Sequence record: PV400810.1
Length of the DNA stretch: 64,000 nt
Strand: one strand, 5' to 3'
DNA from: Pseudomonas phage vB_PaeM_GXNNA8
The notes beneath the pieces were generated by a model. That model was not told the origin of the DNA. It did not search any database and was given only the letters and a program-made list of their open reading frames with translations. The translations under genes were made by a program, and so were the position numbers. Positions 24,339 to 29,430 of this stretch are shown here, piece by piece; position 1 is the first letter of the stretch, and each line of letters opens with the position of its first letter.

Positions 24339-25505
24339 TTATTTAACTCGACGAATCGAGCCGATCGAGTATCCGTCACTGAGGTCAGCAGGCACCACGT
24401 AGTGATACGGACGGATGACTTCCGTGTGGTTCAAATCCATCAGGAAACCCGTCAGGATATCAACAAAACTCTCCGTGTACCGATTAAGTACGCACTCAAT
24501 AAAGTCAACCGATTCATCCGTGATCTTAACCGGCTCACTTCCATCCAGTGGATAACTCCACACGAACCAACTGTTCACATCCAACCCGAAGGGAACGTCT
24601 GTGGTGGCTTTATAGGCGTACAAGCGCTCCAGGATCTCGTTAGCCGCCTTATCCAACCATTCCTTACCATGCACACTGTTGAAAGGATAAATGCGTTTAC
24701 TGAAGTGACTGGCAGCAAATAGAAGGGTGCGGACTTCCTGCTCGAAGAGTGCTTTACCCGCGTCGGTCAGGTTCGCATGCTTGCGGTAATATTGAATCTG
24801 GCGGTTCACTTGATGTTCCAGTTCACCGATAGACTTAATAAGGTCCTTAATGTCCTGACGGTCATCGGGGTTATCGATCTCCAACGTTTCCCCTTCTCCG
24901 AGGGTAATCCCTTCTTTAGGGACTTCAGGGTAGACTTTATCAAACCGAACCGTAAAGTAAGAAAGGTCGTCTTTCTTGGTTTTGAACGTGAGGTAGAGGT
25001 CGTGGTCACGTTTACCTACCCATTCAACCAAATGGTTGCTTTTCTTGGTGATAACATCCACTGCATGACGGAGTTTATTGGAGAGTTTAATCACCAGTTT
25101 ATCCGTGGTTTTCAGATCATCTTGAAGCACATCATCAGCGGGGTGTTTAGCCGCGACCTGTAACCAACTACTGGGGAACTCTATAGAGACCCTCCCCATA
25201 CCCCCTACGATCTCTTCTGGAATGGTGAAGATTTCGTCATTGAAGAGGTATTGGGTCCACTTCTCGTTCAGTCGGAACGTGAGGGTACCGTTGTCACGGG
25301 TATACCGCACGTAGGCTTCTTCTTTACCTTCTTTATTGAGGGTAAAGAAGTAATGGATCTCGACATCCCCGAGGGTCAGCACATCTCGATATTCCGTTTC
25401 CCCTTCTACCCGTTGGCCTACCTCAACCAATTCTCCACCCCACAGGTGGTCGTATAGACGAGCCAGGTTGTTATAGCCCACGGATCCTACTTCTACTTGA
25501 CGCAT
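24339..25505 (-). CDS. Hypothetical protein (about 388 aa; start moved to ATG 25505)
   Basis: The ORF track starts at a TTG (25535). The first ATG (MRQVEVG...) at 25505 has GAAGGGG upstream. Confidence 0.6.
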   Translation of the reverse strand: MRQVEVGSVGYNNLARLYDHLWGGELVEVGQRVEGETEYRDVLTLGDVEIHYFFTLNKEGKEEAYVRYTRDNGTLTFRLNEKWTQYLFNDEIFTIPEEIVGGMGRVSIEFPSSWLQVAAKHPADDVLQDDLKTTDKLVIKLSNKLRHAVDVITKKSNHLVEWVGKRDHDLYLTFKTKKDDLSYFTVRFDKVYPEVPKEGITLGEGETLEIDNPDDRQDIKDLIKSIGELEHQVNRQIQYYRKHANLTDAGKALFEQEVRTLLFAASHFSKRIYPFNSVHGKEWLDKAANEILERLYAYKATTDVPFGLDVNSWFVWSYPLDGSEPVKITDESVDFIECVLNRYTESFVDILTGFLMDLNHTEVIRPYHYVVPADLSDGYSIGSIRRVK

Positions 25506-25534
25506 TTTAAACCCCTTCTTTAAGGACGACTTCA

Positions 25535-28357
25535 ATGTTAGGACTGTTTTCAGTTAAGATCAAACAAACGGGAGACTACGTACACATTACGGGTGTGTCC
25601 TATTACGATTTAGCCAAAGACATTGAGAAGTTCTACAGCACTTCTCTCTTAACGAAACATCAGATTCGACGCGAATCCTGGGACACCATTAAGGTGCATA
25701 ACTTCTTCCTGGTAGAATTGCACCACATTGTGGGGGAACTCCTCAAAATACGGAACCTTCGTACCCGCAGACGAGCGTTGAGTGAACTGAAGGAACTCAT
25801 TGAAACCGAGACCTGGATTAAAGATACGGTTAATCCGGGAGGTAAACCTTTTGATCTTAAGAAACTGAATCAATTTAATACGGTTCCTTTTCCTCAGCAG
25901 TTGGACTTCCTTCAGCAATACCCGATCATTGTGAACAGTTATCACTTGAAAGGGATGCTGCTGGATGCTAAACCAGGTTCAGGGAAAGCCATGCCACTCT
26001 CAACTCGGGTTAAGGTCCCGAATGGGTGGAAAGCCTTGGGTGACCTAAAGGTCAAGGATATCGTAGTGACCCCTGGAGGCGATACCGCGTGTGTGGAGAG
26101 TATTTACCCCCAGGGGATCACGGAAGTTTATCGCTTCTATTTCGAAGACGGTAGAACGGCTGACTCTCATCCGTATCATTTGTGGAAAACCACGGTGAAT
26201 GGGATCGATGAAATCTTAACCACGTTGGAAGTACTCCATAAAGCCCGTAAAGAGGATGTGTACTTCCCCTTAGTGGGTGAGATCAATGGATGCAACCCCC
26301 ATTGCGATACGTCTTCTGAAGTCGCTGCAAGGGAGCTGGTCAATACCGACGTTGTAATAGGGGACAACGTATTGGAGCTCCCGTATCGGGATCGCTTTAA
26401 TATAGTCACATCGGTGATTGAACACGTGGGGTGTTTAATCAGTGAATCCGTCTTATCCGCGTATCACGAGAACCGGATTGGGATGGAGAACTTCCGTCGG
26501 TTGATGTGGTCCATTGGAGGAACAGCTACGGAGCCGGTGTTGGTTAACGGTTTGTATAAGGTTGACTTTAAGCACCGAGACGTCGGCAAGATGATGACTG
26601 GGTTAATTGGAGACAATCCCCGTATTCAAGGAATGTATAACTTCTCCCAGTATGAAGACCTGCAACTGAAGCTGGCGTACTGGGAGAAAGTGGAGAATCA
26701 AGAGACTTGCTGCATTGCCTTGGATAATGACGAGAAGCTGTATGTGGTGGATGACTACATCGTGACCCACAATACCTTTACGTCCTTGGCGTGGTCTCAA
26801 TTGATCAATACGGCTCCGACGGTTGTCTTTTGCCCTATGAACATTGTGGATAAAGTCTGGGTAGAACAACCCCTCCAGCACTTTAAGGTTCCACCCCGTA
26901 TCTGGACCAGTATCAGCGGTAAGGTCTTAGAAGAAGGGTATGACTTCTACATCGTCCATTACGATTACATGACCAGTGGTATGGGGAAATACTTGGAGAA
27001 CTTCCTCATTACGCTGAGTAAGAAGCATAAAGGCGCTTTGAAGATGATTCTGGATGAATCCCAGAACTTCAATGACCCTAAAGCAGCCCGTACACGGAAG
27101 TTGATCGAATGGTGCGACATGGAACTGTTCGGGCATCACCTTCCGATGTCCGGGACCCCGCTAAAGGCTCAGGGGAGTGAGATCTTCCCAACGACCTGTA
27201 TGATCGATCCCTACTTCGATAAGAAGGCTCGGGAGTTCTTTATGGCGTCCTATGGTCGTAACCGTCCCTCGTTAATGGATTTACTGAGCCGACGTATCGG
27301 ACGTATGAAGTTTACGATCCCTGAACTGGTGGGATTGGGTGATCCTCCTCCTATGGAACTGGTTAAGGTGAAGATCCCGAATTCAGATCAATACACCTTG
27401 GATGCTATTCGCCTCCAAATGCAGATTTACATTGGAGAACGGATTGCGTTCTATACGAAGCATATGCCGAGCTTCCTGGAATTCTACAACGATGTTCTGA
27501 CGTCGTATGAATTGTCTATCCAGGGGAATGCTAAAGCGGTTGAGAATCTGGTGAAGTACAAACAGATTGTTCACCGGTTCAGAACCCGGGGGTACAACAG
27601 TTTTACGGATAACCAAGACAGTCAGTTCTGTAAGCGGGTGGAAGAAGACATCGAGAAGGGCCTTAAAGGGACCGCCCTGAAGGATTTCAGGAACATTAAG
27701 TCCGCGGTTAAGTACTTGGGTCTAAAACTGCGTGGAGAGGCCTTAGGGAACGTTTTAGGACGAGCCCGTATTAACGCTATTAAGGACACCATTGCGCACG
27801 CAGGACTCCCTGAGCTCATCGATAACGTGGAGAAGAAGACCCTGATCTTTACCTCCTACGTGGATGCCCTTAAACTCTGTGAGGAATACCTCACGAAGGT
27901 CGGGTATCCGAATGTGACAGTATACGGTGAAAACAGCGCCGAACGAGACGCCAATATCAAACGCTTTGAGAAAGACCCCACTCTCCGTGCGTTGATTGCG
28001 ATCTTTGATTCCCTGAAGGAAGGGTATCCCTTGATTATGGCGAACCTGACCATTCTGTTGAATGCGCCTTTCCGAGAGTATGAAGTGAAACAGGTCCAAG
28101 CCCGTACCTGGCGTACCGGTCAGGATGCTCCCTGTTACTTTAAACTCTTGGATATGGACACCGGGGATAAACTCAACATTATGACCCGCAGTATTAACAT
28201 CATGGAATGGTCTAAGGAACAAGTGGACATTCTCATGAGTAAAGAACAGGGTCATGAGTTGTTGGGTAATATCACCGGCCAAGAAATGTTTGATATGGGG
28301 GATGAACCTGAAACCCATTCTCTGTATACCTCCCGGAGTGTTCTTTCACTCTTTTAA
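25535..28357 (+). CDS. SNF2-family (SF2) DNA helicase/ATPase, interrupted by an intein in Walker A
   Basis: After conceptual intein removal, motif I reads AKPGSGK|TFTS (A-x4-GKT). Motif II ILDESQNF. SNF2-type motif III MSGTPLKAQGSEIFP. Motif VI QVQARTWRTGQD (QxxxRxxRxGQ). AAGGA SD 9 nt upstream. Confidence 0.85.
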   Translation: MLGLFSVKIKQTGDYVHITGVSYYDLAKDIEKFYSTSLLTKHQIRRESWDTIKVHNFFLVELHHIVGELLKIRNLRTRRRALSELKELIETETWIKDTVNPGGKPFDLKKLNQFNTVPFPQQLDFLQQYPIIVNSYHLKGMLLDAKPGSGKAMPLSTRVKVPNGWKALGDLKVKDIVVTPGGDTACVESIYPQGITEVYRFYFEDGRTADSHPYHLWKTTVNGIDEILTTLEVLHKARKEDVYFPLVGEINGCNPHCDTSSEVAARELVNTDVVIGDNVLELPYRDRFNIVTSVIEHVGCLISESVLSAYHENRIGMENFRRLMWSIGGTATEPVLVNGLYKVDFKHRDVGKMMTGLIGDNPRIQGMYNFSQYEDLQLKLAYWEKVENQETCCIALDNDEKLYVVDDYIVTHNTFTSLAWSQLINTAPTVVFCPMNIVDKVWVEQPLQHFKVPPRIWTSISGKVLEEGYDFYIVHYDYMTSGMGKYLENFLITLSKKHKGALKMILDESQNFNDPKAARTRKLIEWCDMELFGHHLPMSGTPLKAQGSEIFPTTCMIDPYFDKKAREFFMASYGRNRPSLMDLLSRRIGRMKFTIPELVGLGDPPPMELVKVKIPNSDQYTLDAIRLQMQIYIGERIAFYTKHMPSFLEFYNDVLTSYELSIQGNAKAVENLVKYKQIVHRFRTRGYNSFTDNQDSQFCKRVEEDIEKGLKGTALKDFRNIKSAVKYLGLKLRGEALGNVLGRARINAIKDTIAHAGLPELIDNVEKKTLIFTSYVDALKLCEEYLTKVGYPNVTVYGENSAERDANIKRFEKDPTLRALIAIFDSLKEGYPLIMANLTILLNAPFREYEVKQVQARTWRTGQDAPCYFKLLDMDTGDKLNIMTRSINIMEWSKEQVDILMSKEQGHELLGNITGQEMFDMGDEPETHSLYTSRSVLSLF
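25988..26773 (+). mobile_element. Intein (262 aa) inserted in the helicase P-loop; begins with Ala, ends HN, +1 residue Thr
   Basis: Splits GSGK|T. Block A AMPLSTRVKVPNGWKALGDL aligns with CLxGDTLVxxxDGxxxIxDL. Block B RTADSHPYHL (TxxHP). C-terminal YVVDDYIVTHN|T. Removal restores a canonical Walker A. Confidence 0.8.
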
Positions 28358-28374: not shown

Positions 28375-29430
28375 ATGAATCAGCAAGCTGATACGGTTGA
28401 ATACGAAGACGAACTGATGGACGGTGTTCCAGAAATGGAACATATTGAGCAAGTACTCGATGGTCTTTCGGATACGGTCATGGGAACTGAAGGAATGGAC
28501 CTGACCGCGAATCAGCGTTACCTTCAGTCCGTTCTCCATACCGCGGGTTACCTGACCCGTAATGAAGTGGCGGGGAATGAGGGGTTCCTGTCGTCGATTG
28601 GCGAAGGGATTAAGAAAGCCTGGGAATACATCAAGAACCTGTTCAAGTCGATCTTCGGAAGTCTTTTCAAGAAGAACGTTAAAGACAAACTAGATAAGGT
28701 AGATGAATCCGCTAAGGCCGCTGAAAAGGCGATAGACGCCGTAGCGAATCCTAAGGTGACAACGACCAACGTAGGACCTGTTCTCCAAGAAGCCACCCAG
28801 ATCGCCAACAAGATCGAGGACCAAAGCGCTAAGGAGACCGTAGTTAAGAAACTTGACGACATTAAAGCCCTTCCGGTGGAACACCAACCTGAACAGACCA
28901 AGAAGGTGATCGAGGAAGTCTTTGAGTCCAGAATCATTTACAGCAGTCTAATGCGTAACCAGGTCACCAAACTGGAAGCCGCGGTGGCTCGTTTGAATGA
29001 GCGTAAAGCGAAGTACCAGAAACTGGCAGATGAAGGTGAGGATTCTGGCGTAGCGGACGGCATGGTTATTGGTATCCAGCAATACGTGAATGGACTTATC
29101 GGCCTGCCTAAAGTGACAACGATCAAAGACCTCAATTCCGCTAAGGAATTTGTCCGCAAAATCGGTCGTTGTGAAGAAGCAATGTCCAACAGTTGGGTGA
29201 GCATCTTTGAGACCCGCCGAGTACTGGAGAGCAAGATTGCCAAGGTGGAAGGTCAAATCAACCACTACAGTAACGACACCGATAAGGAAGCCCTCAATAA
29301 GCAACTCGATGAGCTGAAAGGACTGCTGAGTGGGGTGGTCGAGGTGGATAAGATCACCGAGACGGTGGCAGCTACGATGATCGGCATCACCGAACTGGTC
29401 AGATCGTCGTGTGTTACCAAAGTGAAGTAA
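28375..29430 (+). CDS. Hypothetical coiled-coil protein (351 aa)
   Basis: ORF 18 nt after the helicase stop. K/E-rich heptad-like sequence. Terminator at 29450-29482. Confidence 0.65.
   Translation: MNQQADTVEYEDELMDGVPEMEHIEQVLDGLSDTVMGTEGMDLTANQRYLQSVLHTAGYLTRNEVAGNEGFLSSIGEGIKKAWEYIKNLFKSIFGSLFKKNVKDKLDKVDESAKAAEKAIDAVANPKVTTTNVGPVLQEATQIANKIEDQSAKETVVKKLDDIKALPVEHQPEQTKKVIEEVFESRIIYSSLMRNQVTKLEAAVARLNERKAKYQKLADEGEDSGVADGMVIGIQQYVNGLIGLPKVTTIKDLNSAKEFVRKIGRCEEAMSNSWVSIFETRRVLESKIAKVEGQINHYSNDTDKEALNKQLDELKGLLSGVVEVDKITETVAATMIGITELVRSSCVTKVK

Follow-up and report, generated by a model that had tools for sequence, protein, structure and literature searches.

The window analysed here is the whole 64,000-nucleotide (nt) stretch of Pseudomonas phage vB_PaeM_GXNNA8 (PV400810.1). 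It contains on its plus strand an open reading frame (ORF) of 940 amino acids (aa) at 25535-28357, and within this ORF lies an in-frame insert (25988-26773) which is very probably a class 3 intein in a helicase gene. At the DNA level the ORF is 97.5-98.5% identical to one gene of the Pseudomonas jumbo phage EL and of six EL-like isolates. Its RefSeq counterpart is EL PPEV_gp166 (YP_418199.1), labelled 'DarB-like antirestriction', and other deposits call the relatives of gp166 'DNA helicase', 'putative ATP-dependent helicase domain' or 'hypothetical'. None of the four annotated records (EL, MIZ-Pa99, IR-QUMS-PaBa1, and HHBS8_1) places an intein feature on the gene, and phiRU is unannotated. InBase lists a 'PP-PhiEL Helicase' intein.

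The insert separates an N-extein of 151 aa (25535-25987, plus strand), which equals that of EL gp166, from a C-extein of 527 aa plus stop (26774-28357, plus strand). The N-extein ends with the first half of the Walker A motif, AKPGSGK (25967-25987, plus strand). The C-extein begins with the Walker A Thr (Thr+1, codon ACC, 26774-26776, plus strand) and contains Walker B (LDESQN, 27050-27067, plus strand) and a Helicase_C domain (27812-28120, plus strand). After removal of the insert, the spliced extein (678 aa) scores above the Pfam cut-off for Helicase_C, while ResIII and SNF2-rel_dom fall below the cut-off both here and in the orthologues. Its only PDB sequence matches are SNF2/Rad54/Fun30 proteins (E = 1e-4 to 1e-2), and the host protein matches PHROG 62 'DNA helicase' at 4e-122. 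The host can safely be regarded as an SF2 helicase-like ATPase. Membership in the SNF2 family, to which the original prediction assigned it, is plausible, with the sub-cut-off domain and the PDB matches pointing to it weakly; the helicase part of that assignment holds.

The insert comprises 786 nt, or 262 in-frame codons, of which the first is GCC (Ala) and the last AAT (Asn); the next codon is ACC (Thr). Excising it joins ...DAKPGSGK/TFTSLAW... (the slash marks the junction), so that the insert sits between the Lys and the Thr of Walker A. The spliced 678-aa sequence was used as a query and retrieved 204 homologues from jumbo phages and metagenomes, 120 of which were listed. More than 50 of the 120 listed homologues are intein-less proteins of 680-714 aa with a contiguous Walker A (A/G-x-x-G-S-G-K-T/S-x-x-S-L-x-W), for example that of Klebsiella phage Miami (AKAGSGKTFTSLMW), and 65 are proteins of 912-1044 aa with an insert at the identical position. 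The contiguous motif in intein-less orthologues makes the insertion point unambiguous, and the boundaries of the intein and the split between Lys and Thr, both proposed from the window alone, were exact to the base. GK/T has been termed a 'classic' site for inteins to enter P-loops (PMC5050341).

Sequence profiles and fold both identify the insert (262 aa, AMPLST...YIVTHN, plus strand) as an intein. A search of PDB with the intein as a single sequence found gp41-1_WCT (3.5e-6) and Mycobacterium smegmatis (Msm) DnaBi1 (1.7e-3). A family profile built from 26 alleles matched PDB inteins at E = 6e-17 to 2e-12, including gp41-1_WCT (6riz, 6e-17), Msm DnaBi1 (6bs8, 1e-14), Mycobacterium chimaera (Mch) DnaB1 (6rix, 4e-13), and gp41-1 (6qaz, 1e-12). 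AlphaFold2, supplied with the same alignment, modelled a HINT fold with a predicted local distance difference test (pLDDT) of 95.1 and a predicted template modelling score (pTM) of 0.91. For more than 30 intein structures, Foldseek gave the model a match probability of 1.0. The best whole-model matches were PI-SceI and TliVMA (template modelling score by query, TMq, 0.63-0.69), and the best-covered HINT domains were those of class 3 DnaB mini-inteins (score by target, TMt, 0.80-0.84, probability 1.0). Blocks A, B, F, and G are all present in its HINT fold, and there are orthologues that lack this in-frame insert. Matches in PHROGs to 'terminase large subunit', 'DnaC-like helicase loader', and 'DNA primase' cover intein residues 1-83 and probably reflect intein-bearing members of those families. 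No further intein of this family was found in the 64-kb window when a hidden Markov model (HMM) of the HINT halves was run against all six-frame ORFs.

Class 3 inteins are defined by a non-nucleophilic residue 1, a co-varying Trp(B:12)-Cys(F:4)-Thr(G:5) triplet (WCT), and a +1 residue that is Thr or Ser, and rarely Cys (Tori et al. 2010, PMC2807308), a definition repeated in PMC3196547, PMC5050341, and PMC6195587. They are found mostly in helicase-type P-loops (DnaB, RecG, SNF2, phage terminases) (PMC2807308) and have been reported to be monophyletic. As hallmarks of the class, splicing requires Cys F:4 and proceeds by way of a thiol-labile branched intermediate at block F, and mutants of the +1 residue still undergo N-terminal cleavage. 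The window intein carries the full signature: Ala1, His64 (B:10), Trp66 (B:12), Cys242 (F:4), Thr260-His261-Asn262 (G:5-7), and Thr+1, in the order SHPYH64-L-W66, T-C241-C242-IALD, V-T260-H261-N262/T+1. The non-nucleophilic Ala1 is encoded by GCC at 25988-25990 (plus strand). Block B, GRTADSHPYHLWKT, spans 26150-26191 (plus strand) and includes His61 (B:7), His64 (26177-26179), and Trp66 (26183-26185). Block F, ETCCIALDNDEKLYVV, spans 26702-26749 (plus strand) and holds the predicted initiating nucleophile Cys242 (26711-26713), the conserved Cys of a block that reads ETCCIALDNDEKLY. Block G, DYIVTHN, at 26753-26773 (plus strand), supplies Thr260, His261, and Asn262. The original prediction reported blocks A, B, and G; what it overlooked is that the catalytic His of block B is His64, the second His of SHPYH, and that Leu65-Trp66 follow it. 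It had taken Ala1 with Thr+1 as a sign of an unusual mechanism or of a non-splicing intein, having weighed only classes 1 and 2, whereas this is the defining combination of class 3.

These residues do not vary. An alignment of 64 alleles (the window, 61 helicase-borne homologues, and two orphan copies, described below) has allele identities to the window of 24-49% overall (the low end, 24%, was measured on the 26-sequence alignment A1), and His64, Trp66, Cys242, Thr260, His261, and Asn262 are invariant in 64/64. Residue 1 is Ala in 62 alleles and Glu in two, and the +1 residue is Thr in 61/61 extracted helicase-borne alleles. In an HMM alignment to Msm DnaBi1, intein Ala1, His64, Trp66, Cys242, and Thr260-His261-Asn262 correspond to Ala1, His65, Trp67, Cys118, and Thr137-His138-Asn139, the catalytic centre named in PMC6195587. 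Block F of the window intein has Ile at +1 from the Cys, Asp at +4, Lys at +8 (His in many alleles), and Tyr at +10; the block F residues mutated in the DnaB intein of mycobacteriophage Bethlehem (MP-Be) are Cys320, Ile321, Asp324, His328, and Phe330 (PMC2807308). Since position 241 is Cys in only 2/64 alleles and Cys242 is invariant, Cys242 is the functional one of the pair.

Two side observations concern these residues. The adjacent Cys241-Cys242 (TGC TGC, 26708-26713) is a peculiarity of the EL lineage, to which Cys241 is confined. A Cys48-Cys118 disulfide takes part in redox control of Msm DnaBi1 (PMC6195587), and by analogy a second Cys beside the catalytic one could matter for redox control here. 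The two alleles with Glu1 (P0065 and P0066, GSGK/ELSVNT...) retain the His, Trp, Cys, and THN/T; their block B reads EAGLEHLW.

Class 1 has Cys, Ser or Thr at position 1, and the window intein has Ala. A class 1 intein with a mis-sequenced first codon, in reality TCC or TGC, would account for this, and GCC is indeed one substitution away from TCC. However, GCC is common to the window and five independently sequenced EL-like genomes (Belgium/Russia, Iran, Germany), which excludes the sequencing error at 25988-25990 that had been raised at first. Ala1 in 62/64 alleles points the same way, as do the roughly 140 of 150 wider-family copies (from the best 144 proteins) that begin with a non-nucleophile, and the comparative data have already refuted this explanation, which is left with practically no weight. 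Ala1 and Thr+1 are genuine.

Class 2 inteins have Ala1 as well, and in a KlbA-like mechanism Thr+1 would directly attack the N-terminal junction without involvement of Cys242. Yet class 2 inteins, which are known from KlbA only, pair Ala1 with Cys+1 and have no WCT triplet (PMC2807308, PMC3196547), whereas here Thr+1 accompanies a complete and invariant triplet, and the nearest solved relatives belong to class 3. The archaeal host of the KlbA inteins and their lack of a block F nucleophile are further differences (PMC2807308, PMC3196547). A class 2 mechanism is very improbable.

The wider family is consistent with class 3. A search of 1.84 billion representatives yielded 17,568 proteins at E <= 1e-3, the best 144 of which hold 150 full-length copies. 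Residue 1 is Ala in 99 of these 150 copies, Pro in 21, and Ser or Cys in only 8; the C-terminus is VTHN in 116, Thr+1 occurs in 118 and Ser+1 in 27, and the N-extein ends in GK in 98. Nearly all of these best-scoring copies have class 3 signatures, and the nearest natural inteins in PDB are of class 3, with the class 1 gp41-1 also scoring high. Bona fide SNF2 proteins (PF00176, 40-68 bits) carry the intein family at GLGK/T, and a ClpB likewise carries it at G-x-G-K/T.

Among characterised inteins, Msm DnaBi1 (6bs8) and Mch DnaB1 (6rix/6riy) are the best natural PDB profile matches (HINT TM 0.80-0.84). They share Ala1, His B:10, Trp B:12, Cys F:4, Thr-His-Asn, a hydroxyl residue at +1, and a P-loop site in a helicase ATPase with the window intein. 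They differ in having a DnaB host, Ser+1, and a length of about 139-145 aa with a linker in place of the folded 146-aa endonuclease remnant that the window intein carries in an SF2 host. Their B:7 residue is Asp and that of the window intein is His, and structural-alignment identity is only 12-14%. The MP-Be DnaB intein, the class 3 prototype (PMC2807308), resembles the window intein in its phage helicase host, Thr+1, WCT, an insert of LAGLIDADG type lying between blocks B and F, and the block F spacing (+1 Ile, +4 Asp, +8 His/Lys, +10 Phe/Tyr), compared via published residue positions. It differs by Pro1 after Gln-1 and by its 341 aa with a full endonuclease domain.

The Deinococcus radiodurans (Dra) Snf2 intein is the class 3 case in which a branched intermediate at block F was reportedly detected (Brace et al. 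2010, as described in citing papers). It resides in an ATPase of the SNF2 family; the EL host is only weakly SNF2-like. The highest-scoring PDB sequences, gp41-1 (6qaz) and its WCT variant (6riz), share a phage helicase origin and Thr at G:5. Natural gp41-1, from a cyanophage-like gp41 helicase, nonetheless belongs to class 1 and is split, its residue 1 being Cys and its F:4 residue Asp, and the grafted gp41-1_WCT mainly cleaves, without splicing (PMC7664689). The top Foldseek matches (TMq 0.69), PI-SceI and other VMA-type inteins, have the same two-domain architecture of HINT and endonuclease-type domains; unlike the EL copy, which is without block C and the block E catalytic acid, they belong to class 1.

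Selection on the gene argues that the helicase works. The ratio of non-synonymous to synonymous polymorphism (pN/pS), pooled over pairwise comparisons among six EL-like sequences including the window, is 0.05 for the exteins overall, 0.00 for the N-extein (no non-synonymous change), and 0.07 for the C-extein. Within the intein it is 0.03 in the N-terminal half of the HINT domain, 0.45 in the central domain (relaxed), and 0.34 in residues 225-262. By these values the exteins are under strong purifying selection and the helicase is functional. A domain of 262 aa between the Lys and the Thr of GxGKT is incompatible with nucleotide binding, and since the exteins are constrained to yield a working helicase, the intein must splice. 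The incompatibility with nucleotide binding rests on established knowledge of P-loops and on PMC6195587, where a RadA intein serves as the example and DnaBi1 is discussed.

Two explanations do without splicing. The intein could be decayed, leaving the helicase a pseudogene or permanently dead as an ATPase, as the original prediction had considered; the missing N-terminal nucleophile and the degenerate homing endonuclease would fit this. The purifying selection on the exteins contradicts it. In addition, the catalytic residues are invariant across all 64 alleles, the gene is intact and conserved across about 60 jumbo-phage lineages, and the inactive Arth_1007 intein is without His B:10 and Cys F:4 (PMC3196547), both of which the window intein has. 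A non-splicing intein is thus improbable. Less credible still is a permanent accessory domain that is not an intein and is never excised from the P-loop. It would agree with the failure of Pfam and NCBIfam to see an intein and with the moderate conservation of the central domain. But the HINT fold contains every splicing block, the position is incompatible with nucleotide binding, and presence or absence of the element differs between near-identical exteins (P0095 against the Miami clade, P0096 against P0091).

Splicing through a branched thioester at Cys242 is the best-supported mechanism, although both splicing and the use of Cys242 are inferred. The proposed steps follow the route that was worked out for other class 3 inteins, namely MP-Be DnaB, Dra Snf2, and Msm DnaBi1. 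The 108-kDa precursor would be expected to be ATPase-dead. The thiol of Cys242 (F:4) would attack the Lys(-1)-Ala1 peptide bond to form a branched thioester, with His64 (B:10), Trp66 (B:12), and Thr260 (G:5) positioning and activating Cys242. The N-extein would then move to the hydroxyl of Thr+1, giving a standard branched ester, and cyclisation of Asn262, aided by His261, would free the 29.7-kDa intein. An O-to-N shift would finally form the Lys-Thr peptide bond, restoring GSGKT in an active ATPase of 78 kDa.

Several points weigh against a splicing class 3 intein. The Pfam and NCBIfam intein models find nothing in the intein or the precursor; this silence was rejected as an argument in view of the profile search of PDB, the predicted fold, and the fold search, which decide the question. 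The B:7 residue is His, against Thr, Ser or Asp in studied inteins. The C-terminal HINT segment has the pN/pS of 0.34 given above among EL isolates, with the changes all at residues 230-237, outside blocks F and G. WCT grafted onto the class 1 gp41-1 splices inefficiently, so the triplet alone is insufficient (PMC7664689), and a literature search (phage EL, phiEL or gp166 with intein) returned no experiment on this intein. With these points considered, the probability that the element belongs to a known kind of class 3 intein, at the classic GK/T of Walker A in the SF2/SNF2-like helicase of an EL-like jumbo phage, is put at about 0.9. It is a routine member of a very large and already characterised class and as such of low novelty, since P-loop inteins of class 3 were reported from SNF2 and other helicases in 2010.

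The central domain (intein residues 79-224; 26222-26659, plus strand) is, judging by alignment and model, a decayed remnant of a LAGLIDADG homing endonuclease, corresponding to one half of it. Two alleles, P0095 (362 aa) and P0096 (355 aa), have an intact double-LAGLIDADG domain with the motifs PYLLGVILGDGS and LLRGLLDTDGT; a Pfam scan of P0095 matches LAGLIDADG_3 and Hom_end, and P0096 has PF14528 in the precomputed Pfam column. Compared with them, the window intein has lost the first motif (PYLLGVILGDGS, block C) and about 70 following residues. In the second, the block E remnant YRDRFNIVTSVIEHVGCL (26384-26437, plus strand), it has VTSVIEHVGC for LLRGLLDTDGT, with the catalytic Asp replaced by Val. 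Pfam finds no LAGLIDADG match in the window intein, and the AlphaFold model of the domain is a single alpha-beta-beta-alpha-beta-beta-alpha unit. An active LAGLIDADG endonuclease has two helices, each with a terminal catalytic Asp or Glu, and the window intein lacks such a pair. The degenerate endonuclease suspected in the middle of the intein is thereby confirmed (block C lost, VIEHVG for LLDTDG in block E). The CNPHC pair to which attention had been drawn does exist (Cys102/Cys106), but it lies in a variable loop that reads YSVPC or YNVPC in the isolates HHBS8_1 and phiRU. As it is unconserved even within EL-like isolates, a functional Cys pair or zinc site was rejected.

Before its decay, the endonuclease of the central domain would have spread the element. 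In a neighbour-joining (NJ) tree of the exteins, the EL-like clade of about 56 sequences consists entirely of genes with a decayed intein of 233-272 aa; in this clade the intein appears to be fixed and vertically inherited. Elsewhere in the tree its presence is sporadic. P0095, with its intact endonuclease, is nested in an otherwise intein-less and nearly identical cluster of Klebsiella phages (Miami-like), and P0096 adjoins the intein-less P0091. Because their exteins are nearly identical to those of intein-less neighbours, P0095 and P0096 seem to be products of recent homing. Alleles from Vibrio phages, 227-228 aa long, alternate in the tree with the intein-less pTD1 and Aphrodite1. The alleles form a size series: 355-362 aa with an intact endonuclease, 233-280 aa when decayed, and 227-228 aa at the minimum. 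On the tree topology, the sporadic presence outside the EL clade is what the standard homing cycle predicts.

Copies of the intein family without the helicase were found in related jumbo-phage contigs. At least 21 such orphan ORFs, 248-309 aa long, consist of one intein copy with 14-41 N-terminal and 0-17 C-terminal residues, and they occupy the helicase slot of syntenic contigs, several of which measure 219-244 kb. Examples are located on contigs L006 (954-1883), L007 (162-1025), L010 (4001-4840), L012 (3919-4743), L013 (592-1428), L014 (5001-5840), L015 (3001-3840), L016 (5001-5828), L017 (5001-5897), L064 (517-1359), and L065 (2501-3328). L006 is 82% identical in nt sequence to the helicase-bearing L008 and differs by two deletions that flank the intein, itself left exactly in place; one takes out N-extein codons 18-146, the other the C-extein from roughly +2 as far as the stop. 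The 236-kb IMG/VR contig IMGVR_UViG_2162886007_000107 (L018) carries orphan P0151, and it was not among the 30 and 32 IMG/VR contigs with the invariant C-extein motifs GEALGNVLG and EKKTxIFT[ST]Y in two exact-motif scans only. Both scans recover EL itself, and the helicase seems to be truly absent from this genome. An assembly artefact was rejected as the origin of the orphans, which turn up, in conserved synteny, on many contigs that exceed 200 kb and were obtained from independent samples. Similarity to the N-extein upstream of orphan P0001 proved to be a spurious BLAST extension across a stop codon.

The loss of the helicase probably happened repeatedly. In an NJ tree of the inteins (no support values) the orphans take five to six separate positions among helicase-borne inteins, and orphan P0002 is 88% identical to the helicase-borne P0042/P0048 and only 53% to other orphans. 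In view of the missing support values, at least three independent origins are taken as robust. His61, His64, Trp66, and Cys242 are kept in 21/21 orphans and Ala1 in all 20 that possess the intein N-terminus (P0282 is truncated there). The +1 residue is Gly, Leu or Phe in 11/21, and the C-terminus is VTR in three and VTHS in two. Splicing is predicted to be impossible for those with Gly, Leu or Phe at +1. The residues kept in all orphans are those of the N-terminal, Cys-dependent reaction.

Within orphan groups the ratio of non-synonymous to synonymous divergence (dN/dS) is 0.065-0.12 (dS 0.94-1.7), equal to or lower than that of the neighbouring gene. Given this strong purifying selection and the retained catalytic residues, the orphans appear to be functional proteins in their own right. 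The precedents that come closest, with little or no host protein left, are the Arth_1007 intein, which is inactive, mycobacteriophage Pham3880, and yeast HO. Arth_1007 has been termed a pseudogene and has lost catalytic residues, whereas in the orphans of jumbo phages Ala1, His, Trp, and Cys persist and dN/dS is about 0.07-0.12. No description of such orphan inteins was found in a literature phrase search.

The helicase gene is flanked in the window by genes similar to EL gp167 (24339-25535, minus strand) and EL gp165 (28375-29430, plus strand), both annotated 'hypothetical'. In distant relatives, too, the two flank the slot, whether it holds the helicase or an orphan, and the gp165-like gene itself is absent from some orphan loci (L007, L010, L017). 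For the single pair of orphans P0275 and P0276 (L016 5001-5828 and L065 2501-3328), dS is 0.94, against 0.23 for the adjacent gp165-like genes (L016 5880-6962 and L065 3380-4465). This excess may point to mobility of the orphan or to its exchange by recombination. Of the EL-like isolates, MIZ-Pa99 (L002, PV472050.1) is deposited under Pantevenvirales; Straboviridae, yet its gene is 98.5% identical to that of Elvirus EL over the full length, and the taxonomy line was probably mis-assigned in the deposit.

The value of the window intein lies mainly in annotation: gp166 and its relatives are deposited without an intein feature, Pfam and NCBIfam miss the intein, and the real helicase has 678 aa, not 940 aa. 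The allele series offers a clean natural example of the class 3 homing cycle and supplies new class 3 sequences for protein engineering. Potentially more important than the window intein itself is a by-product, the pattern of orphan inteins. It raises the possibility, tentative and on present evidence rather unlikely, that the family is not only a selfish passenger and has a function of its own selected by the phage. If so, the EL intein, once spliced out, could likewise serve as a free protein. Binding of DNA would be one candidate role; another would be that of a self-cleaving HINT protein, with release or transfer of its short N-terminal peptide. Stand-alone class 3 inteins kept under purifying selection after loss of the host gene would amount to intein domestication in viruses.

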